DNA of 64,000 bases from an uncultured Planctomycetales bacterium (GTDB lineage: Bacteria; Omnitrophota; Gorgyraeia; Zapsychrales; Aceulaceae), in the NCBI GenBank assembly GCA_964648665.1, contig CAZYOA010000004.1, forward strand, positions 52,894 through 116,893, read 5' to 3'. Position 1 is the first letter of the stretch, and every line of letters starts with the position of its first letter. Under the pieces are notes generated by a model. The model saw nothing but the letters and a program-made list of their open reading frames with translations, was not told the origin of the DNA and did not search any database. A program made the position numbers and the translations under genes. Positions 41,652 to 61,945 of this stretch are shown here, in pieces.

Positions 41652-42020
41652 TTAGTTTTTTAGAAAAATCTTTATTTTTTCTAATAGAATTGTTAAATCA
41701 ACAGGTTTAATGAGGTAGTCATCTGCGCCGACATCGTTACCAATTTCGATGTCTTTTTCTTTATCGCGAGAAGTTAGAAGAATAATAGGAATGTTTTTGT
41801 GTTTTGGATCATTCTTGAGAAGTTGGCAAAGATTGTATCCGTTAATGATTGGCATCATAACGTCTAGAATAATGAGGTCTGGATATTTATCCATGGCCAT
41901 TTGAAGACCATCGGCAGCTTTTGTTGCAGATAAAACAGTGTATCCATTTTCTGGAAGCTTGGTTGCTAAAAGTTTTGTTTGAACAGGATCATCATCAATA
42001 ATTAAAATCTTTTTTATCAT
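41652..42020 (-). CDS. stand-alone response regulator receiver (divergent from the GAF-ANTAR gene)
   Basis: It has a complete REC (LIIDDDPV, IILDVMMP, LTSR, IKPV). Confidence 0.8.
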   Translation of the reverse strand: MIKKILIIDDDPVQTKLLATKLPENGYTVLSATKAADGLQMAMDKYPDLIILDVMMPIINGYNLCQLLKNDPKHKNIPIILLTSRDKEKDIEIGNDVGADDYLIKPVDLTILLEKIKIFLKN

Positions 42021-42149: not shown

Positions 42150-43394
42150 ATGGTTGTAAGGGAGAGGAAAATTATTAAAAAAGTTGTTAAAATTAGTCAA
42201 GCCCAAGAAATTCAATTTCTTCGAAAAATTGTTGATTTAACAAGTTCCGATCTTGATCTGAGTCTTATTTTAAGAGAGGTTGTTTCTATCGTTGGTCAAA
42301 TCACAAAAGCAGACTCTGTTTTTATCTATTTATTTGATGATAAAAAGAAGATTTTAACTTTAATGGCGTCTAAGCTTCCGCATAAAAAAGAACTTGGAAG
42401 AATTACATTAAAAGTTGGTGAAGGTATTACGGGTTGGGTTGCCAAGGAAAGCAAAACAGTTTGTATTAAAAAGAGCGCGTGTAAAGACTCTCGTTTTAAG
42501 AATTTTGATGTTCTTCCAGAGGATCAATACGAAGCTTTTCTTTCGATTCCTATTCCGTACAAAGGGTTTCCTATTGGAGTTATCAATGCTCAGCATAAGA
42601 AGGCGTATGATTTTCCAACAAGTGTTGTTAGTTTGATTTCAACTATTGCTAAACAAGTTAGTGGCGTTATTGAAAATGCACGGCTTTATGCGGATGCAAA
42701 GAAAAAAGCTGTTCAGTTTGATAAATTGATGAAAGTTAGTCAGTCTATTACTTCAGAAAGTTATCTCGACGAGATTTTAAATTTAATTGTTGTCGTTACA
42801 GCAGAAATGTTAGATTCAAAGATTTGCTCTGTTATGCTTTTAGATGAAAAGAAACAAGAGCTTTCTATCAAAGCAACACAATCTTTGAATGAGGATTATA
42901 AAAAGAAACCTAATATTAAAGTGGCTAAATCTTTAAGCGGGGAAGCTGTAAAAGCAAAAAAAGCTAAGATGTATTTTGATGTTCGCATGGAAGAGAAATA
43001 TGCTTATCGTGATCTTGCTGATAAAGAGCGATTAAGCTCTATGCTATCAGTTCCAATGATTGTTAAAGATCGCGTTATTGGAGTTATTAATATTTATACA
43101 AAAAGACCGCATGCTTTTTCTCAAGAAGAAGTTAGCGTTCTTCAGATGGTGTCTAATCAAGCGGCAATTGCTATTGAAAATACTAAATTGGTAGAAGAAA
43201 CTGTGAAGGCTAAAGAAGCGCTTGAAACTCGTAAGCTTGTTGAGCGGGCTAAAGGGGTTTTGATGCGCATGCAAGGATTGCCAGAGGAAGAAGCTCATAA
43301 AATGATTCATAAAAAGAGTATGGATTCTTGCAAATCTATGAAAGAAATTTCTGAGTCAATTATTTTAATGGATGAGCTTGCGAAAAGAAAGTGA
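42150..43394 (+). CDS. GAF-GAF-ANTAR RNA-binding antitermination regulator
   Basis: It has two GAF domains (about residues 25-185 and 200-345). A C-terminal ANTAR domain follows (ALETRKLVERAKGVLMRMQGLPEEEAHKMIHKKSMDSCKSMKEISESIIL). Confidence 0.8.
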   Translation: MVVRERKIIKKVVKISQAQEIQFLRKIVDLTSSDLDLSLILREVVSIVGQITKADSVFIYLFDDKKKILTLMASKLPHKKELGRITLKVGEGITGWVAKESKTVCIKKSACKDSRFKNFDVLPEDQYEAFLSIPIPYKGFPIGVINAQHKKAYDFPTSVVSLISTIAKQVSGVIENARLYADAKKKAVQFDKLMKVSQSITSESYLDEILNLIVVVTAEMLDSKICSVMLLDEKKQELSIKATQSLNEDYKKKPNIKVAKSLSGEAVKAKKAKMYFDVRMEEKYAYRDLADKERLSSMLSVPMIVKDRVIGVINIYTKRPHAFSQEEVSVLQMVSNQAAIAIENTKLVEETVKAKEALETRKLVERAKGVLMRMQGLPEEEAHKMIHKKSMDSCKSMKEISESIILMDELAKRK

Positions 43395-43404
43395 TTTTTT
43401 GCAC

Positions 43405-43432
43405 TTGACAAATCCTGAGAATATTGTATATT
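43405..43432 (+). promoter_or_regulatory. sigma70 promoter for the glutamine-synthetase leader (TTGACA - 16 nt - TATATT)
   Basis: The -35 is ttgaca (43405-43410) and the -10 is tatatt (43427-43432). The predicted TSS lies a few nt before the first attenuator hairpin. Confidence 0.45.
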
Positions 43433-43445
43433 TAGATCAGTAGTA

Positions 43446-43496
43446 GGGCAATGATGTCCGCTTAAATCAATGAAGATTTTAAGCGGATTTTTTATT
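43446..43496 (+). promoter_or_regulatory. ANTAR-type attenuator unit 1: dual hexaloop hairpins overlapping an intrinsic terminator
   Basis: Hairpin P1 is GGGC-AAUGAU-GUCC (43446-43459), a hexaloop with A1/G4. Hairpin P2 is AAAUC-AAUGAA-GAUUU (43464-43479), also a hexaloop with A1/G4. The competing terminator is ccgcttaaa/tttaagcgg (43458-43486) followed by attttttatt. Confidence 0.55.
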
Positions 43497-43560
43497 GGGC
43501 AATGATGTCCGACAGTTTTCTCGACGATGTTTCTTGGGAAAGGTCGGATTTTTTTGTTTT
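43497..43560 (+). promoter_or_regulatory. ANTAR-type attenuator unit 2: repeat of the P1 hexaloop hairpin followed by terminator
   Basis: It is an exact repeat of GGGCAATGATGTCC (43497-43510). The terminator stem is tccgac/gtcgga (43508-43548) followed by tttttttgtttt. A second hexaloop hairpin is not obvious. Confidence 0.45.
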
Positions 43561-43566
43561 AAATTT

Positions 43567-43634
43567 GGGCAACGACGTCCTCAAGAAAAGCTAGCGGTGG
43601 CATGTTGTTTAGGCTTTAACTTGAGGATTTTTTT
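43567..43634 (+). promoter_or_regulatory. ANTAR-type attenuator unit 3: P1-like hexaloop hairpin followed by long terminator hairpin
   Basis: P1 is GGGC-AACGAC-GUCC (43567-43580). The terminator is tcctcaag/cttgagga (43578-43627) with an internal aaagc/gcttt helix, followed by tttttttaag. Confidence 0.45.
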
Positions 43635-43700
43635 AAGAGAAAGAAAATCTGTAGAAGAATTTGTTAAAGCTATAAATAAGAAGATTTAAAAGGAGGAAAA

Positions 43701-45797
43701 ATGAAAAAAGAAAGAAAAATACAAACAGTTGCTGATTTCTTCGGCGAAAACGTATTTACATTAAAGACGATGCGTAATTATCTTTCAGAGAAGGCGCATA
43801 AATCTTTAAGTCAAACAATTGAAACTGGAGGCATGCTCGATCCTTCTATTGCAGATGAAGTTGCTGATGCGATGAAGACTTGGGCTGTTTCAAAAGGGGC
43901 AACACATTTTACACATTGGTTTCAGCCTTTAACGGGGACAACAGCAGAAAAGCATGATTCTTTTATCACGCCAGATGGAGAAGGTGGGGTTGTTTTGAAA
44001 TTTTCTGGAAAAGAATTAATTCAAGGTGAACCAGACGCATCAAGTTTTCCATCTGGAGGTCTTCGTCCAACATTTGAAGCGCGTGGATATACAGGATGGG
44101 ACCCAACAAGCCCTGCCTTTATTAAGGAAGGTCCTGAAAGTGCGACACTTTGTATTCCAACATATTTTGTTGGTTGGCATGGAGAAGCTTTAGATAAGAA
44201 AACACCACTTTTGCGCTCTATGAATGCATTGTCAAAGCAAGTATGTCGTTTAGGGGAATTGTTTGGAATTAAATCTAAGGGAAAACAGTCGTATGTAACA
44301 TTAGGTGGCGAGCAAGAGTATTTTTTAATTGACCGAGAATATTACTATGACAGGATTGACCTTATTCAAACAGGGCGAACATTGTTTGGAAAAGAGCCTG
44401 CAAAACATCAACAAATGTCTGATCATTATTTTGGAGCAATTAAAAGCCGAATTATGGGATTCATGGAAGAGTTTGATCGCGAGATGTGGAGAATGGGAAT
44501 TCCCGCAAAGACTCGACACAATGAAGTAGCTCCTGCTCAATTTGAGGTTGCTCCAGTTTTTGAGAGTCTTAATTTAGCTGTTGATCATAATATGATTTGT
44601 ATGGAAATTGCTCAAAAGGTAGCAGAAAAACATGGATTTGTTTGTCTTCTTCATGAAAAGCCTTTTGCTGGTGTTAATGGTTCAGGAAAGCATAACAATT
44701 GGGCGATTGTAGGTCCAGATGGCAAGAATTGGCTTGCTCCAGGAGACAATCCTCATGAGAATGCAAAGTTTTTAGTTGTGCTTTGTGCTGTTATTAAAGC
44801 CGTTGATAAGTATGCAGGAATGCTGAGAGTTTCGATTGCGTCAGCAGGAAATGATCACAGATTAGGTTCTCATGAAGCGCCACCTGCAATTATTTCTATC
44901 TTTTTAGGTGATCAACTTACAGATATTATTAAACAAATTGAAAATGGTGGTGCAAAAACATCTAAAAAAGGCGGAGTTTTAGAAATTGGTGTTGATTCTC
45001 TTCCTACGTTACCGAGAGATGCAACAGATCGCAACAGAACATCACCGTTTGCTTTTACAGGTGCAAAGTTTGAGTTTCGAGCTGTAGGGTCTAATGCAAG
45101 CTTGGCTGGACCGAACATTGTATTAAATACGATTGTTGCCGATGTTTTAGGCGGAATGTGTGAAACATTAGAAAAAGATAAAAAAGCTAAGAAAGATTTT
45201 AATGAGTCTATTCAGAATCTTTTAAAGACCATTATCAAAGAACATAAAAAAGTTATTTTTAATGGAGATAATTATACTCAAGATTGGGTAAAAGAAGCAA
45301 AGAAAAGAGGGCTTCCAAATCTAAAGAATACAGCAGAAGCTTTGGAGATTCTAAAGGATCCTAAAATTCCAGCTTTATTTGAGAGGCAAAAAGTTTTAAC
45401 AAGAAAAGAATTAAAATCTCGATATGAAGTTTATAAAGAAACATATGAGACTATTCTTGACTTTGAGGGACGCCTTTCAATTGATATGGCAAAAACAATG
45501 ATTCTTCCTGCTGCTGTCGAGTATCAGAATCAGTTAGCTGAGACAATCAAGAGTGTTGAGTCTGTGAATAAGACAAAATCAATAGCAACGCGTAAGCTTC
45601 TTAAAGAAATTACAAAGCAGGCAGAACTAGCTTTAGTTTTAATTGAGAAATTAGAGAGTGTTGTTAAAAAGGGAGATGGAGTAAAAACAAAAATAGCTAT
45701 GGAGAGATTACGTGAACCGGTTGATGCGCTAGAAGGATTGGTTCCTGTAGATATTTGGCCGCTTCCATCTTATGCTGAAATGTTGTTTATGCTTTAA
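43701..45797 (+). CDS. glnN: glutamine synthetase type III
   Basis: At 698 aa it shows GSIII family N-terminal and catalytic-region conservation ([20 protein letters not shown]..., NGSGKHNNW). An RBS (aaaggagg) is present. Confidence 0.85.
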
Positions 45798-45810
45798 TTT
45801 AGGAAAACTA

Positions 45811-46515
45811 ATGATTCTTTTTTTAAAACATATCGATATTGAAGGTCCTGGAATTTTTGAGAATCTTTTTGAAAAAGAAGGTTTTGATATAAAGGTTATT
45901 GATCTCGATAAAAACAGTGTGATGCCTGAAGATTCTTCGGGCATCAAAGCTGTTGTTATTTTAGGCGGACCGATGAATGTTTATCAGGAGGATGAGCATT
46001 CTTTTCTTAAGGATGAGAATAATTTTATTCAAATGCTTATTAAGAAGAAAATTCCTTGCTTAGGGATTTGTTTGGGTGCTCAGCTTTTGGCTAAAGCGCT
46101 TGGAGCAAAGGTAAGAAAGTCATCTGTTAGAGAGATTGGCTTTCATGATGTCTGCTTAACAGAGGATGGGTTAGAAAATCCACTTTTTGAGGGTCTTGGA
46201 TATTCTATGAAAGCTTTTCAATGGCATGAAGATACATTTGATATACCAAAAAAAGGAATGCTCTTAGCTGAATCTATGGGGTGTGAGAATCAAGCATTTT
46301 ATTTTGGTGAGAATGTTTATGGATTGCAGTTTCATGTTGAGGTTGATGGCCCTATGATTGAGAACTGGATGAAGACTTATTGGAATATTGAAGATATTTC
46401 TAAAGATAAAAAAGCTCAAGAAATTGTTAAAGAGTATGATAAAATTAAGTCTACATTTGATTCTCAAGCAAATATAATTTGTAAGAATTTTGTGAAGATT
46501 ATTAGAGAAAAGTAA
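45811..46515 (+). CDS. class I glutamine amidotransferase-like protein (stand-alone GATase1)
   Basis: The catalytic Cys is in GICLGAQLL and a His is in LQFHVE. The start is taken at ATG 45811 (RBS aggaaa), not the longer ORF that overlaps glnN. Confidence 0.7.
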   Translation: MILFLKHIDIEGPGIFENLFEKEGFDIKVIDLDKNSVMPEDSSGIKAVVILGGPMNVYQEDEHSFLKDENNFIQMLIKKKIPCLGICLGAQLLAKALGAKVRKSSVREIGFHDVCLTEDGLENPLFEGLGYSMKAFQWHEDTFDIPKKGMLLAESMGCENQAFYFGENVYGLQFHVEVDGPMIENWMKTYWNIEDISKDKKAQEIVKEYDKIKSTFDSQANIICKNFVKIIREK

Positions 46516-46554
46516 TATTCTTTTAAGATTTAATGCATAAAAAATAGGCAAATA

Positions 46555-48240
46555 ATGAAAAAAATAAGAATCGCATTAGCACAAATCAATACTATTGTTG
46601 GTGATCTTTCTGGAAATTCTAAAAAGATCTTAAGCTTTGTTGATATTGCACGTCAGATTGATAGCGATATTGTTATTTTTCCAGAGCTTGCTATTACAGG
46701 TTATCCTCCTGAAGACTTACTTTTAAAGAAGTATTTTGTTGATGACAATAAAAAAGAGCTTCGTCTTTTGGCATCTAAAATAAAAGATATAACAGCTGTT
46801 GTTGGATTTGTAGATTGTGATCGTAATAAAAATCTTTACAATGCTGCGGCTGTTATTGCTAATGGAAAGATTAAGGGAGTTTACGCAAAGCAATGTCTTT
46901 CGAATTATGGTGTTTTTGATGAAAAGCGCTATTTCTTAAAAGGCGATGAAAACTTTATCTTTTCTTTAAATGGAATTGGTTTTGAAATAAGTATTTGTGA
47001 AGATATTTGGGATGAAAACGGATTGTGTGTTAAGCAGGCAAAAAGTGATGCTCAGGTGCTTCTTAACCTTTCTGCTTCCCCCTATCATTCTGGAAAAGCT
47101 CGACAACGCCAAATGCTTTTATCGAAAAGAGCAAAACAAAGAAAATCATTTGTTTGCTATTGCAATCTTGTTGGCGGACAAGATGAACTTGTTTTTGACG
47201 GAATGAGCGCGATTGTTGATTCTGATGGCAAGACTATGGCTGTAGGTCGACAATTTGAAGAAGATTTGATTGTTACTGACATTGATATTGATGAAAAAAA
47301 GAAAATAAGATCAAAATGTGTTTGCACAATAAAACAAAAGACATCAGAAGAGAAAGTTTTTATTAAGTTAAAAAAGAATAAGAAATTAAGCTCTTGTGAA
47401 GAAATTTATAAGGCTCTTGTTTGCGGTACCCAAGATTATATTTTAAAGAACGGATTTAAGAAAGTTGCTCTTGGTATAAGTGGCGGAATTGACTCTGCTT
47501 TAGTTGCGATCATTGCAGCTGATGCTTTAGGAAAAGAAAATGTATTAGGTGTTTCAATGCCATCTCAACACACATCGAAATCTACACAAGCTGATGCTAA
47601 GAGGCTTGCGAAAAATCTTGGGATTGCCTTTCTCGAGATACCGATTAAGCAAACTTACCAGGCGTATATCGCAACTTTGAAAAAACAGTTTGCAGGCCAA
47701 AAAGAAAATATTGCTGAAGAAAATTTACAGGCACGTATTCGAGGAAATATTTTGATGGCTCTTTCTAATAAGTTTGGATATTTGGTTTTAACGACGGGAA
47801 ATAAAAGTGAAATTTCTGTTGGATATTGTACTCTTTATGGAGATATGGCAGGAGGTTTTGCACCAATTAAAGATGTTCTAAAAACGAAAGTTTATGATTT
47901 GGTAAAATATCGAAATCAAGAAGAAGGATCAAATTTAATTCCAAAAAGCATTATTAAGCGCCCTCCAACAGCGGAACTTAGAAAAGGACAAAAAGATCAG
48001 GATAGCCTTCCTCCGTATGATGTCTTGGATTCGATTTTAGAGGCCTACGTGCAAGGAGATTTAAGTATAAAGTCTTTAGAGAAAAAGAAAATTAGCATTA
48101 AGCTTACTAAGAAAATTATTGGACTTGTTGATCGCATGGAATATAAGCGTAGACAAGCACCATTGGGCGTTAAAATTACTTCTAAAGCTTTTGGTAAAGA
48201 TCGACGTTTACCGGTTATTAATAAATATACGGAAAAGTAA
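46555..48240 (+). CDS. nadE: glutamine-dependent NAD+ synthetase (CN-hydrolase + NAD synthetase domains)
   Basis: It has an N-terminal nitrilase-like domain (IALAQINT, catalytic C in ISICEDIW). The C-terminal PP-loop is GISGGIDSA. Confidence 0.9.
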   Translation: MKKIRIALAQINTIVGDLSGNSKKILSFVDIARQIDSDIVIFPELAITGYPPEDLLLKKYFVDDNKKELRLLASKIKDITAVVGFVDCDRNKNLYNAAAVIANGKIKGVYAKQCLSNYGVFDEKRYFLKGDENFIFSLNGIGFEISICEDIWDENGLCVKQAKSDAQVLLNLSASPYHSGKARQRQMLLSKRAKQRKSFVCYCNLVGGQDELVFDGMSAIVDSDGKTMAVGRQFEEDLIVTDIDIDEKKKIRSKCVCTIKQKTSEEKVFIKLKKNKKLSSCEEIYKALVCGTQDYILKNGFKKVALGISGGIDSALVAIIAADALGKENVLGVSMPSQHTSKSTQADAKRLAKNLGIAFLEIPIKQTYQAYIATLKKQFAGQKENIAEENLQARIRGNILMALSNKFGYLVLTTGNKSEISVGYCTLYGDMAGGFAPIKDVLKTKVYDLVKYRNQEEGSNLIPKSIIKRPPTAELRKGQKDQDSLPPYDVLDSILEAYVQGDLSIKSLEKKKISIKLTKKIIGLVDRMEYKRRQAPLGVKITSKAFGKDRRLPVINKYTEK

Positions 48241-48329
48241 AAAAAGTTATTTAATAGTTGTAAGATTGTAAAAAAATATTAAAATGGATAAAAAATTACA
48301 GAAAAAGAAATAAAGAAGGATTTTGTTAA

Positions 48330-48512
48330 AGCAAAAAGAGGAAAATCTATCGCTATATTATTAATGATGTTGAGAAAGTATTGATAACGAAAGCTCTTGA
48401 GCAAGCGTTTGGCAGTCAAGCCTTAGCTTCTAAAATTCTTGGAATCAATCGAAATACAATTTGTTCTAAGATTAAAAAATTAAAAATAAAAGTGAATCAA
48501 TTTAAGATATGA
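48330..48512 (+). CDS. Fis-family HTH mini-ORF (Fis/NtrC C-terminal DNA-binding helix-turn-helix), possibly a functional mini-Fis or a relic of a sigma54 activator
   Basis: The frame is open from 48330 and translates to ...INDVEKVLITKALEQAFGSQALASKILGINRNTICSKIKKLKIKVNQFKI. This aligns with the E. coli Fis C-terminus (LYELVLAEVEQPLL...[22 protein letters not shown]). There is no in-frame ATG, only TTG/ATT candidates. Its TGA stop overlaps the gltB ATG (ATGA) in a translational-coupling arrangement. Confidence 0.4.
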   Translation, partial: SKKRKIYRYIINDVEKVLITKALEQAFGSQALASKILGINRNTICSKIKKLKIKVNQFKI

Positions 48513-51500
48513 GTAACAATTTTATGATGAAAAAACAAGGAATGTACGATCCTCGTTTCGAGCATGATAGCTGTGGTGTTGGCTTTGTGGTTAACATCAA
48601 AGGAAAAAGAAATCATGATATTATTCGAAATGGTATTAAAATTCTAGAAAATCTTACGCATCGTGGAGCCACAGGATCTGATCCTTTAACAGGAGATGGA
48701 GCCGGTATTTTAGTTCAAATTCCAGATGATTTTTTTAGGAAAGAATGTCCGAAGGTTAACATTAATCTTCCTGAAGAAGGAGGTTATGGCGCTGGTATTG
48801 TTTTTCTTCCAAAAGATTTAGAGGAGCGCAATCTTTGTGAGGAATGGCTTGAGCAAATTATTCATCAGGAGGGGCAGAAATTCTTAGGGTGGAGAAATGT
48901 TCCTTGTGATAATAGTAAAATTGGGCATGTTGCGCGATTAGCAGAGCCAGAATTTAAGCAGATTTTTATTGGCAGAGGTGATAATACAAAAGAAGAAGGT
49001 GCTTTTGAGCGTAAGCTTTATGTGATAAGAAAGTTGATTGAGAAGAAAGTCAGAGATTCTCAGATTCAGCAAAAACATTTTTTTTATGTCTGTAGTCTCT
49101 CTTCAAAAACGATTGTTTATAAGGGTCAGTTAATGGCTGAGCAGGTTAATGGATTTTATACAGATTTAGCAGATCCTTTATTTGTTTCTTGCTTGGCTAT
49201 GGTGCATTCTCGTTATAGTACAAATACATTTCCAACATGGGCGTTAGCTCATCCGTATCGCGTTATTGCACATAATGGTGAGATTAATACATTGCGTGGA
49301 AATATTAATTGGATGCATGCTCGAGAAATGCAGTTTATTAGTGAACTTTTTGGAGAAGAAGATACAAAGAAAATTTTACCAATTATTACACCTAATGCGA
49401 GTGATTCTGCAACGTTTGATAATGTTTTAGAAATGCTGACGCTGTGTGGGAGATCATTGCCGCACGCTGTTATGATGATGATTCCAGAGGCTTGGAGTGG
49501 GCATGAGAGTATGAGTGATAAAAAGAAAGCTTTTTATGAATATCATTCAAGTATTATGGAGCCATGGGATGGGCCGGCTTCGATTGGTTTTACTGATGGA
49601 AGATATGTTGGCGCTGTATTAGACAGAAACGGACTCCGTCCATCAAGATTTTTGCTTACAAAAGACGACATGATTATTATGGCTTCTGAAACAGGAGTTT
49701 TGCCTGTTAGTCCGGATAACGTTTTGAAAAAAGGACGTCTTCAGCCAGGGCGAATGTTCTTAGTTGATACTCAAGAGGGACGGATTATCGATGATGATGA
49801 ATTAAAAGATTTTTATGCGACACAAAATTTGTATGAAGAATGGATTAAAGAAAACTTAGTAGATTTAGAATCTCTTCCGAAACCGAGAGTGTCTCATCGT
49901 ACTGATGAAAAAACATTGCTAGAGAGACAAAGAGCGTTTGGCTATACCTTGGAAGATCTAAAAATTATTCTTTATCCTATGGTTGCCGACGGAAAAGAAG
50001 CAACGGGATCTATGGGAGAGGATACTCCTCTAGCTGTCTTATCAAGAAAGCCGCGACTTTTATATACATATTTTAAACAACTTTTTGCACAAGTTACAAA
50101 TCCTCCAGTTGATGCTATTCGTGAAGAAATTGTTATGGCTGAGGATGTTTTGCTTGGAGCAGAGCGAAATCTTCTTAAGGAAACTCCACAGCATATTCAG
50201 AGATTAAAATTAAAAAGACCAATTCTTGTTAATGATGATTTAGAGAAAATTCGTGAAATTAAGAAGCCAGGTCTTCAAAATGTGACATTGTCGATTTTGC
50301 TAGAAAGAAATAGTGGTCCAGAGAATATTGAAGAAGCATTAGAAAGTGTTTTTAAGAAAGCTGATGAATCTATTGAGCAGGGCAAAACGATTATTATTCT
50401 TTCAGATCGAGGTATTGATAAAAAGCATGTTGCTATGCCAGCGTTGTTGGCTTGCGCAGGACTTCATCATCATCTTATCCGCCGAGGAACGCGAACAAAG
50501 GTGAGTATTGTTTTAGAGACAGGTGAAGCTAGAGAAATGCATCATTTTGCAACATTGATTGGATATGGAGCAAATGCAATTAATCCTTATCTAGTTCTTG
50601 AAACTATTGAGTCAGAATTTAAAAAAGGATCTTATCCAAGTGATTTAATATTTGAAAAGATTCAAGAAAACTTTTTGTCATCAACGCGAAAAGGATTGTT
50701 TAAGGTTATTTCAAAAATGGGAATTTCAACGATTCAGTCGTATTGTGGAGCTCAAATTTTTGAATGTGTTGGATTAGGCAAAGAAATTGTTGATAACTAC
50801 TTTGAAGCAACACCATCTCGCATTGGCGGTATTGGTGTTGTAAAAGTTGCTGAAGAAATGTTTTTGCGACACGATGCTGCTTATCCAAAAGATCAAATGC
50901 AAGAGACTATGCTTGATGGTGGTGGAAGTTATGCCTGGCGAAAAGATAGCGAACATCATCAGCTAAGTCCAGAGGCGATTGCAATTTTACAGAATTCTGT
51001 TCGAACGGGTGATTATCAGATGTATAAGAAGTTTGCAGATATTGTAAATAATTATCAGACAAATCTTGCGACAATTCGAGGTCTTTTAAAATTTAAAAAG
51101 GGAAAATCAATTTCTATTGACGAAGTAGAGCCTGCTGTGGAGATTGTAAAACGATTTGCAACGGGTGCGATGAGTTATGGATCGATTTCAAGAGAAGCTC
51201 ATGAAACGCTTGCTATCGCGATGAATCGTTTAGGCGGTTTTTCAAATACAGGAGAGGGTGGCGAGGATCCGGAGCGTTTTAAGCCATTAGCTAATGGAGA
51301 TTCAAAGTGTAGTCGTATTAAGCAAGTTGCTCAGGGACGTTTTGGCGTTACGATTGAATATTTAGCGAATGCGGATCAACTTCAGATTAAAATGGCACAA
51401 GGAGCAAAGCCCGGCGAGGGAGGACAACTTCCAGGGCATAAAGTTAGCCAGGAAATTGCAAATATACGTCATACAACAAAAGGTGTTGGACTTATTTCTC

Positions 51501-53056
51501 CTCCACCTCATCATGATATTTATTCGATAGAAGATTTAGCGCAACTTATTCATGATTTAAAGAATTCAAATCCAAAGGCAGATGTTAGTGTAAAGCTTGT
51601 TTCGGAAATCGGTGTTGGTACGATTGCTGCTGGTGTTTCTAAGGGTAAGGCAGATCATCTTTTGATTAGTGGTTTTGGAGGAGGCACAGGTGCTTCTCCG
51701 CAGACTTCTATAAAACACGCAGGTCTTCCTTTAGAGTTGGGATTAGCTGAGACGCAGCAAGTTTTAGTGATGAATGATCTTAGAGGACGTATTCGCGTTC
51801 AGGCTGATGGACAAATGCGCACAGGTCGAGATGTTGCTATTGTTGCAATGTTAGGAGCTGATGAGGTTGGATTTGCAACAGTTGCTCTTGTGACGATGGG
51901 ATGCGTTATGTTACGTAAATGCCATTTGAATGCTTGCTCTGTTGGAATTGCAACTCAAGATCCTAATCTAAGAAAGAATTTTAGAGGAACGCCAGAGCAT
52001 GTTGTAAATTATTTTCTTTTTGTTGCTGAAGAATGTCGAGAGATTATGGCAGAACTTGGGTTTAAAACATTTAAAGAAATGATTGGTCGTGTCGATATGC
52101 TTGAAACGCAAGAGGTGGTTGATCATTGGAAGGCTGATGGATTAGATCTGACACATATTTTACACAAACCAGATGTGCCAAAAGATGTTATTACCTCTCA
52201 CCAAGGTGTTCAAGATCATGGGTTAGAAAAAGCATTAGATCAGAAAATAGTAAAGCTTGCAAAAAATGCTATCGAAAACAAACAAGCTATTAAGATTGAA
52301 TTACCAATTCAAAATATTAATCGAACTGTTGGAACAATTTTAAGTCATGAGATTGCAAAGCGATATGGGCTTGAAGGTCTTCCAGATAAAACAGTTCAAG
52401 TTCTTTTTAAAGGGTCTGCTGGTCAAAGTTTTGGTGCATTTTTATCAAAGGGAGTTAAGTTTGTTCTTGAAGGTGATGCTAATGATTATTTAGGTAAGGG
52501 TTTATCTGGTGGAAAAATTACAGTTATCCCTTCCCGGGAGGCAACTTTTGTTCCTGAAGAGAATATTATCGTTGGAAATGTTATTCTTTATGGTGCGATT
52601 GAAGGAGAGGTTTTTATTCGCGGACTTGCTGGTGAGCGATTTTGTGTTCGTAATAGTGGTGTGCATGCTGTTGTTGAAGGCATTGGTGATCATGGATGTG
52701 AATATATGACTGGTGGACGTGTTGTTGTTTTAGGTTTAACAGGAAGAAATTTTGCAGCTGGCATGAGTGGTGGAATTGCATATATTTTAGATAAAGAAAA
52801 AGTTTTTAGTCGACATTGTAATATGACGATGGTAGATTTGGAAGAAGTTGTAGAAAGCGAAGATGTTAAAGAGCTTAAAAGTTTAATTGAAAAACATCTC
52901 AAAGAAACAAAAAGTGGTGTTGCTAAAAATGTTCTAGATGCTTGGCCAGAAGTGTTAAAAGATTTTGTTAAGGTTTACCCAAAAGATTACAGGTGTGTTG
53001 TAGAAGAAGCTAAGGCGATAAAAAATCAGGAGCAAGAGGCAAAAAGTCATGGGTGA
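48509..53056 (+). CDS. gltB: glutamate synthase large subunit
   Basis: At 1515 aa it has an N-terminal class II amidotransferase Cys (FEHDSCGVGFV). Central FMN/Fe-S domains and a C-terminal GXGXG domain follow. Confidence 0.95.
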   Translation: MSNNFMMKKQGMYDPRFEHDSCGVGFVVNIKGKRNHDIIRNGIKILENLTHRGATGSDPLTGDGAGILVQIPDDFFRKECPKVNINLPEEGGYGAGIVFLPKDLEERNLCEEWLEQIIHQEGQKFLGWRNVPCDNSKIGHVARLAEPEFKQIFIGRGDNTKEEGAFERKLYVIRKLIEKKVRDSQIQQKHFFYVCSLSSKTIVYKGQLMAEQVNGFYTDLADPLFVSCLAMVHSRYSTNTFPTWALAHPYRVIAHNGEINTLRGNINWMHAREMQFISELFGEEDTKKILPIITPNASDSATFDNVLEMLTLCGRSLPHAVMMMIPEAWSGHESMSDKKKAFYEYHSSIMEPWDGPASIGFTDGRYVGAVLDRNGLRPSRFLLTKDDMIIMASETGVLPVSPDNVLKKGRLQPGRMFLVDTQEGRIIDDDELKDFYATQNLYEEWIKENLVDLESLPKPRVSHRTDEKTLLERQRAFGYTLEDLKIILYPMVADGKEATGSMGEDTPLAVLSRKPRLLYTYFKQLFAQVTNPPVDAIREEIVMAEDVLLGAERNLLKETPQHIQRLKLKRPILVNDDLEKIREIKKPGLQNVTLSILLERNSGPENIEEALESVFKKADESIEQGKTIIILSDRGIDKKHVAMPALLACAGLHHHLIRRGTRTKVSIVLETGEAREMHHFATLIGYGANAINPYLVLETIESEFKKGSYPSDLIFEKIQENFLSSTRKGLFKVISKMGISTIQSYCGAQIFECVGLGKEIVDNYFEATPSRIGGIGVVKVAEEMFLRHDAAYPKDQMQETMLDGGGSYAWRKDSEHHQLSPEAIAILQNSVRTGDYQMYKKFADIVNNYQTNLATIRGLLKFKKGKSISIDEVEPAVEIVKRFATGAMSYGSISREAHETLAIAMNRLGGFSNTGEGGEDPERFKPLANGDSKCSRIKQVAQGRFGVTIEYLANADQLQIKMAQGAKPGEGGQLPGHKVSQEIANIRHTTKGVGLISPPPHHDIYSIEDLAQLIHDLKNSNPKADVSVKLVSEIGVGTIAAGVSKGKADHLLISGFGGGTGASPQTSIKHAGLPLELGLAETQQVLVMNDLRGRIRVQADGQMRTGRDVAIVAMLGADEVGFATVALVTMGCVMLRKCHLNACSVGIATQDPNLRKNFRGTPEHVVNYFLFVAEECREIMAELGFKTFKEMIGRVDMLETQEVVDHWKADGLDLTHILHKPDVPKDVITSHQGVQDHGLEKALDQKIVKLAKNAIENKQAIKIELPIQNINRTVGTILSHEIAKRYGLEGLPDKTVQVLFKGSAGQSFGAFLSKGVKFVLEGDANDYLGKGLSGGKITVIPSREATFVPEENIIVGNVILYGAIEGEVFIRGLAGERFCVRNSGVHAVVEGIGDHGCEYMTGGRVVVLGLTGRNFAAGMSGGIAYILDKEKVFSRHCNMTMVDLEEVVESEDVKELKSLIEKHLKETKSGVAKNVLDAWPEVLKDFVKVYPKDYRCVVEEAKAIKNQEQEAKSHG

Positions 53057-54476
53057 AGTAAAAGGATTTTTAAAATACGATAGAGAGCACTTTGAAAAGC
53101 AATCTATTGCTGAACGTCTTAAGCATTGGAATGAATTTTATATTTATCCTGAAGAAAGCTTTTTAAAACAGCAAGGCGCACGATGTATGGATTGCGGAAT
53201 TCCTTTTTGTCAGTGGGGCTGTCCGATTGGAAATATTATTCCGGATTGGAATGATCTTGTTTATAAAGATCGATGGCAAGAAGCTTTTGAGCGATTACAG
53301 AAAACAAATAATTTTCCAGAGTTTACTGGGCGTGTTTGCCCGGCGCCATGCGAGAATTCTTGTGTTCTAGGCATCACAGATCCTGCGGTAACAATTAAGA
53401 ATATTGAGCTTTCTATTGTTGAAAAAGCATATAAAGAGAATTGGATTAAGCCGCGTGCGCCAAAAGTGCGTAGCGGTAAGAAAGTTGCCGTTGTTGGTTC
53501 TGGTCCGGCGGGGCTTGCATGTGCTGATCAGCTTAATCAAATGGGTCACAACGTTGTTGTTTACGAGAAGAATGAAGTTGTGGGCGGACTTTTAGCTTTA
53601 GGCATTCCAGATTTTAAATTGGAAAAAAAGATTATTGAAAGACGAGTTGAGCGCATGAAAAAAGAGGGTGTTCAATTTAAAATAAATGTTAATGTTGGTG
53701 TTGATGTTGATCGCAAAGAGCTTCAAAAGAAGCATGATGCGATTGTTTTATCTGGTGGAGCCGAGAATCCGAGAGATCTCAGTGTTGAAGGACGTGATTT
53801 AAAAGGCGTTTATTTTGCAATGGAGTTTCTAGCACAGCAAAATCGTGTGAATAGAGGCGTTAAGGTTGATGAAGGTGATCGTATTAATGCTGCGGGTCAG
53901 AATGTTGTTGTTTTAGGTGGAGGAGACACGGGAGCTGATTGTGTGGGAACATCAAATCGACAAGGAGCGTCATCTGTAAAACAATTTGAACTTCTACCAG
54001 ATTTGCCAAAAGAAAGAACGCAAGATAACCCTTGGCCTTATTGGGCATTTATTAAAAGAGTGTCGACTTCGCATGAAGAGGGCGTTGAGCAGGATTATTG
54101 TGTAATGACTAAGAAATTTAGTGGGGAAAATGGTGTTTTAAAAAATCTTCATGCGGTTCGTGTTGAATTTGGAGATAAAGATCCTGACACAGGCAGATGT
54201 CCTATGAAGGAAGTGCCAGGATCAGAGTTTACTGTATCTGTTGATAGGGTATTTTTAGCAATGGGGTTCTTAGGGCCTCAAAAAATAGGACTTTTGGAAA
54301 ACTTTGGCGTCGACCTTGATCTTAGGGGAAATGTTAAGACAGATGATCAAGGCATGACTAGCGTCTCTGGAATATTTGCTGCAGGGGATATGCGTCGTGG
54401 TCAATCTTTGGTTGTTTGGGCTATTTATGAAGGACGAACAACAGCGCAAAATGTTCATCAATATTTAGCAAAATAA
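53049..54476 (+). CDS. gltD: glutamate synthase small subunit (NADPH)
   Basis: It has Fe-S Cys clusters (CMDCGIPFC, CPAPCENSC). FAD and NADPH Rossmann motifs (VAVVGSGPAG, VVVLGGGDTG) are also present. It overlaps gltB by 8 nt. Confidence 0.9.
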   Translation: MGEVKGFLKYDREHFEKQSIAERLKHWNEFYIYPEESFLKQQGARCMDCGIPFCQWGCPIGNIIPDWNDLVYKDRWQEAFERLQKTNNFPEFTGRVCPAPCENSCVLGITDPAVTIKNIELSIVEKAYKENWIKPRAPKVRSGKKVAVVGSGPAGLACADQLNQMGHNVVVYEKNEVVGGLLALGIPDFKLEKKIIERRVERMKKEGVQFKINVNVGVDVDRKELQKKHDAIVLSGGAENPRDLSVEGRDLKGVYFAMEFLAQQNRVNRGVKVDEGDRINAAGQNVVVLGGGDTGADCVGTSNRQGASSVKQFELLPDLPKERTQDNPWPYWAFIKRVSTSHEEGVEQDYCVMTKKFSGENGVLKNLHAVRVEFGDKDPDTGRCPMKEVPGSEFTVSVDRVFLAMGFLGPQKIGLLENFGVDLDLRGNVKTDDQGMTSVSGIFAAGDMRRGQSLVVWAIYEGRTTAQNVHQYLAK

Positions 54477-54500
54477 TGGGTTTGTAGACCATTATATTTC

Positions 54501-54528
54501 TTGACGGATACCTGATTAATGGTATTAT
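54501..54528 (+). promoter_or_regulatory. sigma70 promoter for carAB (TTGACG - 16 nt - TATTAT)
   Basis: The -35 is ttgacg (54501-54506) and the -10 is tattat (54523-54528). It lies 60 nt upstream of the carA ATG. Confidence 0.45.
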
Positions 54529-54587
54529 TATGTCTAAGTTTTAAAATAACTTTTCTTTAACACTCATCTTTTAAGTTGTAATCTTAC

Positions 54588-55685
54588 ATGAAAAAAGCAA
54601 TAGTATATTTGGAAGACGGAACGATTTTTGAAGGTCGATCTATCTTCTCCTGTGGAGAGAGTGCAGGTGAGATGGTTTTTAATACTTCTATGAGCGGTTA
54701 TCAAGAAATTTTAACCGATCCTTCCTATGCTGGTCAAATTGTCACCATGACATATCCATTAATCGGAAATTATGGGGTCAATGAAGATGATGTTGAATCA
54801 AACAAGATTCACGTTAAAGGTTTTATTGTTAAAGAGTTTGCCCGTCGATTTTCTAATTTTCGTGCTACAAAATGTTTGATGGAGTATTTAAAAGAAAATA
54901 ATATCATAGCCATTGAGAATGTTGATACGAGAGCGCTTACAAAGCATTTGCGTGTCCGTGGAGCTATGAAAGGTATTATTTCAACTGAAGATTTTGATCC
55001 TAAAAGTTTGGCTGAAAAGATTAAAAAAGTTCCAGATATGGAAGGTAGCGATTGGGTTAAGGAGGTTACGACAAAAGAAAAGTATATTTGGAATAAGGGA
55101 GAAACTTGTGATCTTAAGGTTGCGGTTATTGATTGTGGTGTTAAATTTAATATTTTAAGAATCCTTGCTGAGCTTGGTTGCGAAGTTCATGTCTTTCCGT
55201 CTACGGTTACAGCTGAAGAAATTCAAGCTATTAATCCAGGCGGACTTTTTGTTTCTAACGGCCCAGGAGATCCTGCGGCCGTTTCTTATGTTGTCGAGAC
55301 GGTGAAAAAGTTTTTAGGAAAGCTTCCAATATTTGGCATTTGTTTGGGAAACCAGATTTTAGGATTGGCTTTGGGTGGAAAAACATACAAGCTAAAGTTT
55401 GGACATAGAGGAGCAAATCATCCTGTTAAAGATTTACAAGAAAATAAAATTTCAATTACATCTCAAAATCATGGTTTTTGTGTGGACATGGAAAGCTTGA
55501 ATGCCGACGATGTTGAAGTTACACATATTAATTTAAATGATAAAACGGTTGAAGGGATTGCACATAAAAAGTATCCGCTTTTTTCTGTTCAGTATCATCC
55601 AGAGGCTTCTCCTGGTCCTCATGATGCCCGATACTTATTTGATAGATTTATTAAAATGATGAAGGATTTTCATGCCAAAGCGTAA
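54588..55685 (+). CDS. carA: carbamoyl-phosphate synthase small (glutaminase) subunit
   Basis: At 365 aa it has a CPSase small-chain N-domain and GATase1 with the catalytic GICLGNQ. Confidence 0.9.
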
Positions 55686-58600
55686 TGATATAAAAAAGAT
55701 TTTGTTGATTGGTTCGGGTCCAATTATTATTGGACAAGCGTGTGAATTTGATTATTCAGGAACACAGGCTTGCAAGGCGCTGAAAGAAGAGGGCTATGAA
55801 GTTGTGTTGATTAATTCAAATCCAGCGACGATTATGACTGATCCTGAGATTTCGGATGCGACATATGTCGAGCCTTTGACCCTTGAGTTTGTTGAACGTG
55901 TCATTGAAAAAGAAAGACCGGATGCACTTTTGCCAACGCTGGGAGGACAAACAGGGTTGAATCTGGCGATGAAAGCTTCTGAAAAAGGTATTTTAGAAAA
56001 ATATAATGTTGAATTGATTGGGGCACCTTATGATGTTATTAAGAAAGCAGAAGATCGAGAGTGTTTTAAAGAAGCTGTATTGAAAGTTGGTCTTGAAGTG
56101 CCAAGAAGTGCTTTTGCTCATACAATGGATGAAGCTCGCAAATCTGCAAAGAAAATAGGATTTCCTTTGATTGTTCGACCAAGCTATACCTTGGGCGGAA
56201 CGGGGGGAGGACTTGTTTACAACAAAGAAGATCTTGAGAAAACAGCTTTCTTAGGCCTTGAAAGTAGTATGAATAATGAGGTTTTGATTGAAGAGTCAAT
56301 TGAAGGATGGAAAGAGTATGAGCTTGAAGTTATGCGAGACTGCAAAGATAATGTTGTTATTATTTGCTCTATTGAAAATATTGACGCCTTAGGTGTTCAT
56401 ACAGGAGATAGCATTACCGTGGCTCCGGCTCAGACTTTATCTGACAAAGAATATCAAAGAATGCGTAATCAAACGCTTGCATTGATTCGTGAAATTGGCG
56501 TGGAAACAGGTGGATGCAATGTTCAGTTTGCTGTGGACCCCGCAAACGGCCGCATTGTTGTTATTGAGGTTAATCCTCGTGTGTCTCGAAGCTCTGCCTT
56601 AGCATCAAAAGCAACAGGATTTCCAATCGCGAAATTTGCAGCTAAGCTGGCTGTTGGATATTCTTTAGATGAGATTCAAAACGATATTACAAGAGAAACA
56701 CCTGCTTCATTTGAACCTACCATTGATTATTGTGTAACCAAAATTCCAAGATTTACATTTGAGAAATTCCCTGAGGCTGGGGATGCCCTTGGTGTTTCGA
56801 TGAAGTCTGTTGGCGAGACGATGGCTATTGGACGGACATTTAAAGAGTCTTTGCAAAAAGGATTGCGCGGTCTTGAGATAGGTCATATTGGGCTTGATAA
56901 TAAGTTAAACTTTGAAGATATTTCTGATGAAAAAATTATTCAAAGATTAAAGGTGGCAAATGCGTCTCGAATTTTTTACATTAAATATGCGTTTCAAAAA
57001 GGAATGAGTGTTGAAGAAATCTTTGAAATGACAAAAATTGATCCATGGTTTCTTTCAAATATTTCTGAATTAGTTGAGTTTGAAAATAATCTTAAGAGCG
57101 AAGCGATTAATAATAAAGAAATCAGTGAAGAATCTTTAAAACAAGCTAAGCAGTGGGGATTTAGCGATGCGCAGTTAGCCCAAATTTTTTCAATAACAGA
57201 AAAAGAAATGCGTACATTTAGAAAAGAAAAAGGTATTTGTGTGGTCTTTAAGCTAGTTGATACCTGTGCTGCTGAATTTGAAGCGTATACACCATATTAT
57301 TATTCGACTTATGAAGATCAGGCAGAAAGTAAAGTCGAAGATTCAAAGGAAAATAAAAAGAAAAAGATTATGATTTTAGGTGGCGGTCCGAATCGAATTG
57401 GACAAGGCATTGAATTTGACTATTGTTGTTGCCATGCGTCATTTGCTTTAAAAGATATAGGTTGTGAAACAATTATGGTTAATTCAAATCCGGAGACGGT
57501 TTCAACGGATTACGATACTTCAGATCGTCTTTATTTTGAACCGTTAACGTTTGAAGATGTAATGAATATCGTTGAAGTAGAAAAACCTGATGGCGTGATT
57601 GTTCAATTTGGCGGACAAACTCCTCTTAATCTTGCACATGCTTTAGATGAGGCTGGCGTACCAATTATTGGAACTACAGTAGAGTCGATTGATCTTGCGG
57701 AAAATAGAGAAAAGTTTTCAGAATTTATTTCTAAGCTTGGACTTTCTCAGCCAGAGAATGGATCAGCTTTTTCTGCTGATCAAGCCATCGAGATTGCACA
57801 AAGAATTGGTTATCCGGTTTTAGCTAGACCGTCATATGTTTTAGGCGGCAGAGCTATGAAAATTGTTTATGACAAGAAATCTCTTTTAGAATTTATTGAA
57901 GAAGCTAAAGATGTTTCGCAAGGACATCCAATTCTTATTGATAAGTTTATTGAGGATGCGATTGAAGTTGATGTTGATGGAATTTCTGACGGAGAAGATG
58001 CTGTTGTTGCCGGGATGATGGAGCATATTGAGAATGCGGGTATTCATTCAGGTGATTCGGCGTGTGTTTTGCCACCTCATACATTGAGCCCTAGATTGAT
58101 TGAACAAATTAGAAAAAATACATGTGATATTGCAAAAGGATTAGGCGTTGTTGGTCTTTTAAATATTCAGTTTGCTATTAAAGGTGACATTATTTATGTT
58201 CTAGAAGTTAATCCTAGAGCGTCTCGAACAGTTCCTTTTGTTAGTAAGGCAACGGGTGTTCCTTTAGCAAAAATTGCTTCGCAGATTATGGTGGGTAAAA
58301 AAATATCTGAATTTAAATTTGTTGATATTGAAAGTCTTGAATATATTTCAGTTAAAGAATCTGTTTTACCTTTTTCGCGTTTTTCTGGAGTCGATATTGT
58401 TCTTGGTCCCGAGATGAAATCAACTGGAGAGGTTATGGGAATTGATAGTACCTTTGGCGCCGCGTTTGCTAAAGCACAGGCTGCTGCTGGTCAATCTTTA
58501 CCTCAGGATGGAAAAATTTTCTTAAGTGTTAATGATTGCGATAAACGTAACATTGCGTTTTTAGCTAAGAAGCTTGTAGATATGAATTTTGATCTTCTTT

Positions 58601-58911
58601 CAACCAAGGGAACAGCTCGCGTGCTTAAAAAAAGCGGTATTGATGTTCAATCTATTGGTAAGGTTGGCGAAGAAAAGAATAATTTGCTTAATTCAATTAA
58701 GAAAAATAAGATTAATTTGGTTATCAACACGCCATCTGGAAAGCGAAGCCAATCAGATATGAGAGCGATTCGGGCAGCTGCAATTTTGCACAATGTTCCG
58801 TGCATTACGACGATCCAGGGTGCATGGGCTGCAATTAATGGTATTGAATCTAGTAAAGAAAAAGTTTTTTCTGTTAAATCATTGCAAGAATACTATAAGA
58901 AGGAAGTTTAA
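55672..58911 (+). CDS. carB: carbamoyl-phosphate synthase large subunit
   Basis: At 1079 aa it has duplicated ATP-grasp halves and a C-terminal MGS-like domain. It overlaps carA by 14 nt. Confidence 0.95.
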
Positions 58912-58913
58912 CT

Positions 58914-60287: not shown

Positions 60288-60331
60288 GATTTTAACGTAT
60301 AGCTTAAAAGTTTCAATGATAGGAATCATCT

Positions 60332-61936: not shown

Positions 61937-61945
61937 AATTTATTT

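Follow-up and report, generated by a model that had tools for sequence, protein, structure and literature searches.

The control of nitrogen genes by ANTAR-domain proteins through transcription antitermination is already established, and target RNAs of this type have been predicted upstream of genes for PII, the ammonium transporter, glutamine synthetase, and glutamate synthase, with one genome carrying at least 13 such elements in six transcription units, i.e., more than one per unit (PMC3369931). The closest studied system is GnfK/GnfR of Geobacter sulfurreducens (Ueki and Lovley 2010, PMC2995071), wherein GnfR binds the element CAGGCAANGGCGCC, which overlaps terminators at nifH and the glnK-amtB operon. 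In the eut leaders of Enterococcus faecalis, EutV/EutW act on paired hairpins, P1 and P2, whose hexaloops carry A at position 1 and G at position 4 (hereafter A1 and G4); in these leaders P2 and the terminator are mutually exclusive, and a single hexaloop constitutes the minimal ANTAR-binding site (Walshe 2022, PMC8934654; PMC3369931). As for one-component ANTAR proteins, the characterized examples named by Goodson et al. 2020 are limited to NasR and the light sensor PAL (PMC7496416), and our literature searches recovered no characterized GAF-ANTAR protein. Here we describe a locus in a 64,000-nt stretch of DNA (contig CAZYOA010000004.1; hereafter the window) from an uncultured Candidatus Omnitrophota bacterium, in which a gene for a protein with two GAF domains and an ANTAR domain is followed by a leader with three complete attenuators stacked ahead of glnN, the gene for a type III glutamine synthetase. 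Here the glutamine synthetase gene appears to be turned on by an RNA-binding sensor protein able to override three consecutive transcription stop signals. The best explanation of the locus, to which we assign a probability of roughly 0.78, is a one-component nitrogen switch acting on the nascent RNA via three serial attenuators. An earlier interpretation drawn from the letters alone (the sequence-only reading) had already described the GAF-GAF-ANTAR frame, a near-consensus promoter past it, three 14-nt elements with possible A1/G4 hexaloops on 4-bp stems in a glnN leader of about 260 nt, a GC-stem and U-tract terminator overlapping each of them, a further hexaloop inside the first terminator, and a glutamine synthetase III gene downstream, and this anatomy is borne out by the analyses presented below.

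The leader opens with a sigma-70-type promoter (TTGACA and TATATT spaced by 16 nt; 43405..43432, + strand) that matches the consensus at 11 of 12 positions and begins 11 bases past the stop codon of the regulator gene. Transcription is predicted to start at about 43439-43441, 5-7 nt ahead of the first hairpin and about 260 nt before the glnN start codon; the consensus scan detected no other promoter-like site on the + strand from 43433 to that codon. The TTGACA and TGTATATTT blocks are also kept before the orthologous leaders of six related loci or contigs (L001, L002, L003, L063, L068, and L072 in our numbering). Exact copies of the 14-mer GGGCAAYGAYGTCC are found at three positions in the window, namely 43446, 43497, and 43567, all on the + strand. 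When up to two mismatches are allowed the window contains five copies against 0.41 expected, a count reached in none of 100 shuffles. The two-mismatch copies, at 21619 and 49449 (- strand), were dropped, as they lie within long open reading frames (ORFs) and have no overlapping terminator, and neither a looser stem-only pattern nor a covariance model located relevant P1-type elements elsewhere in the window. Each of the three 14-mers can fold into a 4-bp stem (G-C, G-C, G.U, C-G) bearing a hexaloop with A1 and G4; this hexaloop reading is model-based, because RNAfold prefers a 5-bp stem with a tetraloop, in which A1 pairs with U6, for the bare 14-mer.

The three units, all on the + strand, share a common organization in which the 5' arm of the terminator opens with GUCC, the very segment that forms the 3' arm of P1; because both structures need it, P1 and the terminator are mutually exclusive. 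In unit 1, the proposed ANTAR-binding antiterminator hairpin P1 (GGGC-AAUGAU-GUCC, 43446..43459) overlaps terminator 1 (43456..43493; hairpin 43456-43488 followed by a run of 6 U; -14.8 kcal/mol), and a second A1/G4 hexaloop, P2 (AAAUC-AAUGAA-GAUUU, 43464..43479), forms the apex of that terminator and is present in both alternative folds. Unit 2 is comprised of a single hexaloop without a P2 (P1 GGGC-AAUGAU-GUCC, 43497..43510) and terminator 2 (43507..43555; hairpin 43507-43549, then 7 U; -18.2 kcal/mol). Unit 3 combines an exact copy of the 14-mer (P1 GGGC-AACGAC-GUCC, 43567..43580), also matched by the covariance model described below, with terminator 3 (43577..43634; hairpin 43577-43628, then 7 U; -18.5 kcal/mol), whose 5' half contains a further A1/G4 hexaloop (P2 GCU-AGCGGU-GGC, 43590..43601) that is not part of its lowest-energy fold. 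All three hairpins have the form of intrinsic terminators, viz., a stable G+C-containing stem abutting 6-7 U, and are accordingly predicted to terminate transcription. Two claims of the sequence-only reading had to be revised here. It saw only the first hairpin in units 2 and 3, which holds for unit 2 and fails for unit 3; and it took unit 1 for the textbook geometry of an ANTAR antiterminator, which it is not, as P1 rather than P2 competes with the terminator and P2 is merely the terminator apex.

Folding with and without constraints confirms the competition for GUCC that the sequence-only reading had anticipated. The terminator is favored over P1 by 3-4 kcal/mol, leaving P1 with an equilibrium occupancy of 0.1-2%. 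When P1 is enforced, a shortened hairpin persists, separated from the U run by 4 nt (GGAU). Stems of intrinsic terminators that do not reach the U run terminate poorly, and the shortened hairpin would be expected to behave likewise. We also used a covariance model (R1) built from 19 dual-hairpin units of other genomes only and searched the entire window with filters off. It matched unit 1 over its full length (43446-43479, 30.6 bits, E = 5e-6), unit 3 also over its full length (43567-43604, 18.7 bits, E = 0.005), and unit 2 over the P1 part only (model positions 1-14, 12.3 bits). The rest of the window yielded nothing with E < 0.09, the next best match being 27334-27363 (13.7 bits), which lacks the P1 stem. 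Rfam searches over 43300-43800 with E up to 10 returned chance-level matches only (best 18 bits against a threshold of 141), and no ANTAR-target family was among them, though whether Rfam curates one was not established.

The units recur in related Omnitrophota genomes, where the regulator gene and the motif co-occur in the loci examined. We scanned 31 sequences, namely 30 Omnitrophota loci encoding the regulator plus the window, for a fixed P1 stem (GGRC-N6-GYCC) with an unconstrained loop and a required overlapping terminator, and recovered 51 units, 47 on the strand of the regulator and 4 on the opposite one. In all units, the 5' arm of the overlapping terminator begins between +9 and +13 of P1. 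Though the loop was left free, position 4 is G in 47/47 units, and A occupies position 1 in 37 (G in 9) and position 5 in 36; these features of P1 are the signature of ANTAR targets as read from sequence. Downstream of the units lie amtB, Gcw_chp-like genes with amtB behind them, glnN, or a gene for a nirB-like nitrite reductase, with 1-4 units per leader, and GGGCAANGANGUCC overlaps terminators ahead of glnN, amtB, glnK, and nirB. L001, L002, and L003 have the promoter blocks in common with the window, as well as the order of units 1, 2, and 3, and this order together with the promoter is also found in the metagenome contigs L063, L072, L094, L095, and L131. In the first three loci, the gene next to the leader is amtB or Gcw_chp-like, and glnK and glnN lie beyond it. 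The leader is also found away from the regulator gene, both behind another ORF (L002) and in contigs recovered by the pattern only. The orthologs of unit 2 in L001, L002, L003, L063, L072, L094, and L131 have an apex without a hexaloop, and those of the unit 3 P2 keep A1 and G4 (L001 GCC-ACUGAU-GGU, L002 GCC-AAAGAA-GGC, L003 GCC-AAUGUU-GGC).

Across the scanned set, a P2-like hairpin is present in 20 of the 47 units against 6.4 expected. As whole-unit MAFFT alignments brought the 3' halves, and sometimes P2, out of register, pairs were counted on an alignment guided by the covariance model. In this alignment of 44 distinct dual units, pairing holds in 90% of the cells, 0/500 shuffles attain the 38 cells that change on both sides, and sliding the pairing partners abolishes the covariation signal; the six-base loops of P2 have G4 in 31/31 and a purine at position 1 in 30/31. 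P1 also shows some compensatory change, because hairpins that depart from GGRC/GYCC still pair, e.g., GAGC-AACGAG-GCUC in L053 (3356-3388, - strand) and GGGC-AAAGAG-GCUC in L027 (5302); owing to such variants the stem-based scan undercounts the units. When metagenomes were scanned with a pattern of two P1 copies separated by 30-60 nt, 106 stretches were recovered, of which those on low-G+C contigs comprise more two- and three-unit leaders, mostly before amtB or Gcw_chp-like genes. About 85 of the 106 lie on high-G+C contigs without terminators and were rejected as chance, coding, or tandem-repeat matches (the last including L113, L115, and L148). In these three contigs GGACCTCCTTGCCC-like or similar words recur, with up to 17 stem-pattern matches in 1.4 kb, and the arrays are probably tandem repeats and not attenuators.

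The protein that would act on these RNAs is encoded directly upstream (42150..43394, + strand; 414 aa) and is comprised of GAF1 (residues ~20-180), GAF2 (~206-343), a helical linker, and the ANTAR domain (354-405). Pfam detects GAF_2, GAF, and GAF_3 over two stretches, with no receiver domain, and its ANTAR profile (PF03861) matches residues 354-405 with 67.9 bits (6.4e-19) against a gathering cut-off of 27.3. Searches against sequences in the PDB likewise place the C-terminus, whose identity the sequence-only reading had put forward by inspection, as a genuine ANTAR domain (Rv1626, 8e-10; NasR, 5e-9; EutV, 1.5e-7). Orthologs within Omnitrophota are 61-85% identical, the upper value being that of L001, the closest related locus, which belongs to a metagenome-assembled genome of Candidatus Aceula. 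In an alignment to EutV, the RNA-contacting positions R142, K143, K149, E160, and M172, as well as the dimer-contacting E146, are kept. Overall, the contact-residue pattern of the domain, with the departures from it noted below, is compatible with RNA binding while falling short of proving it.

The N-terminal GAF domain offers a clue to the signal. Its best PDB match is the GAF domain of PtsP (3ci6, 1e-19; also 3trc, 6e-12), and its best NCBIfam matches are PtsP (121 bits, 4.6e-35, profile positions 5-163) and NifA (82 bits, 3.8e-23, positions 3-169). The GAF domain of NifA binds 2-oxoglutarate. In several bacteria, EI-Ntr is inhibited by glutamine bound to its GAF domain (PMC4848567), and reciprocal control by 2-oxoglutarate is given in the same source as a citation of Lee 2013. 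By analogy, the likeness of GAF1 to PtsP/EI-Ntr and NifA hints at glutamine or 2-oxoglutarate as the signal, thereby lending support to the nitrogen-status sensing that the sequence-only reading had proposed for the paired GAF domains.

From the sequence anatomy, the exclusive folds, the conservation, and the domain identities computed here, we infer RNA binding, antitermination, a ligand, and the shape of the response along the following lines. Transcription would start near 43440 and reach P1 of unit 1 almost at once, and the polymerase would then meet three intrinsic terminators in series before glnN. In every unit the weak hexaloop hairpin P1 (GGGC-ANNGAN-GUCC) and the terminator would compete for GUCC. 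With the regulator inactive, each unit would fold into its terminator and transcription would stop. With the regulator active, an ANTAR dimer would capture the P1 hexaloop and, in units 1 and 3, also P2, which lies 4-9 nt downstream; GUCC being thus retained in P1, the terminator stem could not reach the U run and read-through would ensue, to be repeated at units 2 and 3, such that production of the glnN mRNA would require all three units to be overridden. Because read-through probabilities multiply, three units should yield lower leakage, and hence a lower basal level, and a steeper response than one; the steep, digital response suggested by the sequence-only reading would be of this kind. 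In the dual units, one dimer on P1 and P2 might keep the 4-9 nt linker single-stranded and thereby block the whole lower stem of the terminator, which would fit the linker-length requirement of EutV (PMC8934654). The signal is probably nitrogen status, read via the PtsP/NifA-like GAF1, with low glutamine or high 2-oxoglutarate as the on state.

Set against the described systems, the locus resembles GnfK/GnfR in that an ANTAR protein is predicted to control nitrogen genes through leader terminators. The GnfR element (GGC-AANGGC-GCC, with A1 and G4) is close to GGGC-AANGAN-GUCC and also overlaps the terminator; judged against the published consensus (PMC2995071), a GnfR-type GGCAANGGCGCC-like hairpin lies over the terminators of a nitrogen-gene leader here too. 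Further, the GnfR target operon, with a hypothetical gene, glnK, and amtB, parallels the Gcw_chp-amtB-glnK operons of Omnitrophota. However, GnfR is a response regulator of the receiver-ANTAR type that a kinase phosphorylates, whereas the protein described here is a GAF-GAF one-component protein; the Gnf promoters depend on RpoN and GnfM, whereas a sigma-70-type promoter is found here; and three serial units have not been described for Gnf, which also belongs to another phylum. The eut leaders (PMC3369931, PMC8934654) share the A1/G4 hexaloops and, with units 1 and 3, the pair of hairpins joined by a short linker; under the switch proposed here they would also share an ANTAR dimer that prevents formation of an intrinsic terminator and the control of several attenuators by one regulator. 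They differ in that P1 is always folded and P2 and the terminator are exclusive, whereas here P1 and the terminator are exclusive, P2 of unit 1 is the terminator apex, and unit 2 is a single hexaloop; moreover, the eut attenuators are spread along the operon instead of being stacked in one leader, and the eut sensor is a kinase-driven receiver domain, unlike the tandem GAF module. Compared with the description of ANTAR targets by Ramesh 2012, all three P1 copies in the window carry the hexaloop with A1 and G4, the second hairpin P2 is found downstream in units 1 and 3 and is absent from unit 2, and the terminator arms start inside P1 in place of a terminator that overlaps P2 and is mutually exclusive with it.

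NasR, a NIT-ANTAR protein acting on the nasF leader of Klebsiella oxytoca, is likewise a one-component protein with a ligand-binding domain fused to ANTAR, is encoded beside its target operon, and controls nitrogen assimilation; it differs in its NIT sensor for nitrate/nitrite, in having a single attenuator, and in responding to a specific substrate rather than to general nitrogen status. The predicted ANTAR nitrogen regulons of Desulfotomaculum and Pelobacter (PMC3369931) also have target RNAs before nitrogen genes, but those matches were selected for a terminator over P2, the regulators are not of the GAF-GAF type, and stacked units were not compared. What is new here is, first, a putative tandem-GAF sensor in place of a receiver or NIT domain; second, a leader in which, according to the folding models, P1 rather than P2 would compete with the terminator; third, the mixture of dual and single hexaloop units, in line with the single-hexaloop minimal site of Walshe et al.; and fourth, three complete attenuators stacked in one leader. 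Serial attenuators are otherwise familiar from leaders with tandem riboswitches or T-boxes (e.g., the three T-boxes of Bacillus subtilis thrZ) and are thought to cut leakage and sharpen the response. In those cases the effector, a metabolite or a tRNA, acts directly on the RNA with no protein antiterminator.

Several observations weigh against the proposed switch. In the regulator, the position of the EutV Tyr164, which stacks on G4, is occupied by His383 (window 43296-43298). Of 117 Omnitrophota relatives, 66 have His there and 51 Tyr, an alternation consistent with an aromatic stacking role; in other ANTAR structures the equivalent residue is Phe (Rv1626) or Trp (NasR). The backbone-contacting R168, R175, and R177 of EutV are not kept either, their equivalents being H, C, and S. 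With respect to the signal, the PtsP and NifA matches fall far under the cut-offs for the full-length families, as is expected because only one domain is shared, and the ligand assignment is based solely on domain-level similarity. On the RNA side, a consensus terminator scan missed all three terminators, whose loops or bulges exceed its limits, and its sole + strand match was the P1 hairpin; we therefore defined the terminators by RNA folding. Terminator 3 folds no better than shuffled sequence (z = -1.5). P2 of unit 1 is compatible with terminator 1, and the canonical reason for a P2 thus does not apply in that unit. Finally, the P2 statistics are partly circular, in that the alignment was fitted to the model and the seeds were chosen by architecture.

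The alternative that survives best leaves the ANTAR-dependent attenuators in place and replaces the signal read by the GAF domains with a cyclic nucleotide, redox or heme, GlnK (PII), or a receiver-only protein encoded nearby. GAF domains as a class bind many ligands, and GAF2 also resembles the GAF domains of cyclases and phosphodiesterases; glnK belongs to the regulated operons of relatives; and NasT, another ANTAR protein, binds cyclic di-GMP (PMC10783516). The receiver-only candidate is a separate gene for a response regulator of 122 aa (41652-42020, - strand), divergent from the GAF-GAF-ANTAR gene, and it stays beside the regulator in L001, L002, L003, and L027 with 74-85% identity; its product may be the partner of the regulator or unrelated to it. 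Yet the best matches of GAF1 are to PtsP and NifA, two GAF families that read nitrogen status, and the regulated genes are all nitrogen-assimilation genes, and we accordingly regard a different signal as a real but distinctly less probable option than nitrogen status.

The remaining alternatives dispense with ANTAR-dependent antitermination and fare much worse. The three hairpins might simply be constitutive terminators of the regulator gene, with glnN served by its own promoter and the 14-mer arising as a by-product of terminator duplication: they lie directly behind the regulator stop codon, all look good as intrinsic terminators, and tandem terminators do occur after genes. However, a conserved near-consensus promoter intervenes between the stop codon and unit 1, no promoter-like site is present from unit 3 to glnN, and the leader also occurs away from the regulator gene, both in L002 and in the pattern-only contigs. 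Moreover, what is conserved is the hexaloop hairpin with its invariant G4, while the terminator stems vary in sequence and length, making this account improbable.

Still less probable is that GGRC-N6-GYCC is a DNA operator of a dimeric transcription factor, forming a roadblock or repressor array in which the terminators are incidental. The element is indeed an imperfect inverted repeat present in three copies near a promoter, but its third stem pair (positions 3/12) is G.U in 28 of the 47 units (A-U in 11 and G-C in 5), and as a G.T in DNA this would not pair; the G.U pairs therefore argue for RNA pairing or recognition, and not a DNA palindrome. The 6-nt center is, furthermore, asymmetric, with the invariant G4 having no mirrored C at position 3, 47 of the 51 units lie on the coding strand, every one overlaps a terminator arm at the fixed offset noted above, and an ANTAR regulator of the RNA-binding type is encoded alongside. 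Equally unlikely is a protein-independent leader, i.e., a metabolite riboswitch (e.g., glutamine-responsive) or a leader-peptide attenuator, for although glutamine riboswitches precede nitrogen genes in other phyla and a 64-codon TTG-initiated ORF spans 43495-43689, no Rfam family matches even at the permissive cut-off, the 14 nt of the conserved hairpin leave no room for a ligand pocket, the ORF lacks a Shine-Dalgarno sequence and crosses two terminators, and the motif matches the ANTAR target signature (PMC3369931, PMC8934654).

Past the third terminator, a further hairpin (43605..43679, + strand; -19.4 kcal/mol, z = -3.1) can form, though in read-through RNA only: the 3' arm of terminator 3, together with its U run, pairs anew with an A-rich complement lying downstream. 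The core of this hairpin pairs GGAUUUU with AAAAUCU (43644-43650) and is extended by AGGCUUUAAC pairing with GUUAAAGCU. Equivalent post-terminator hairpins are found in L001 (5455-5528), L002 (6975-7046), and L063 (13460-13526). In the amtB leaders of these same three relatives, this post-terminator hairpin pairs GAGGAUUUUUU with AAAAAAUCCUC, and a UCCUCC-like stretch lies between it and the GGAGG ribosome-binding site, immediately ahead of the latter, an arrangement that could couple antitermination to translation; the leader in the window has no UCCUCC stretch.

The leader in the window directly precedes glnN (43701..45797, + strand; Pfam GSIII_N and Gln-synt_C), which has the Shine-Dalgarno sequence AGGAGG at 43691-43696. 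The glnN gene overlaps by 26 nt with a class I amidotransferase gene (45772-46515, + strand; Pfam GATase), and these are contiguous with nadE, coding for a glutamine-dependent NAD synthetase (46555-48240, + strand; Pfam NAD_synthase with CN_hydrolase); the order regulator-glnN-GATase-nadE is also seen in L017, L021, and L024. A search for amtB and glnK in the 64-kb window found neither. Gaps of 269 nt before gltB and 111 nt before carA, in which no P1 elements or clear terminators were detected, could hold promoters. The leader may thus govern the glutamine-using genes past these gaps, as the sequence-only reading considered plausible, or only the genes ahead of them. The + strand run from 43701 to 63541 encodes glnN, the class I amidotransferase, NAD synthetase, gltB, gltD, carA, carB, a purF-like amidophosphoribosyltransferase, and pyrG, i.e., mostly glutamine-using enzymes, and ends in a 531-aa ORF right after pyrG (61946-63541) that matches neither Pfam nor NCBIfam. 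Ahead of gltB (start 48509), a short open frame at 48330-48512, with 43 codons from a TTG at 48381 and ending 4 nt into gltB, matches the Fis-type HTH_8 profile (33.4 bits; cut-off 22) and resembles a C-terminal helix-turn-helix detached from an NtrC-type activator, be it a gene remnant or a mini-protein.

The locus is a compact case, with regulator, promoter, three attenuators, and target contained in 1.6 kb and dozens of natural variants already aligned. Its stacked attenuators constitute a natural experiment on serial termination and the shape of the response curve, while the natural single-hexaloop attenuators and the competition by the first hairpin are both relevant to the revised EutV model. 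The locus also points, through the analogy to PtsP and NifA, to nitrogen status as what the GAF domain senses, and it illustrates a way in which an uncultured phylum may control the uptake and assimilation of ammonium. More tentatively, and with considerable doubt, the GAF-GAF-ANTAR protein might be the master nitrogen regulator of Omnitrophota, binding glutamine and/or 2-oxoglutarate through a PtsP/NifA-type GAF domain and turning this directly into antitermination at stacked attenuators, many of them single-hexaloop units whose protein-bound hairpin would itself serve as the antiterminator. If so, it would supply the natural single-hexaloop ANTAR targets called for by Walshe et al. 2022, and a post-initiation one-component circuit would replace the control of initiation by NtrBC, GlnR, or NtcA across a candidate phylum.

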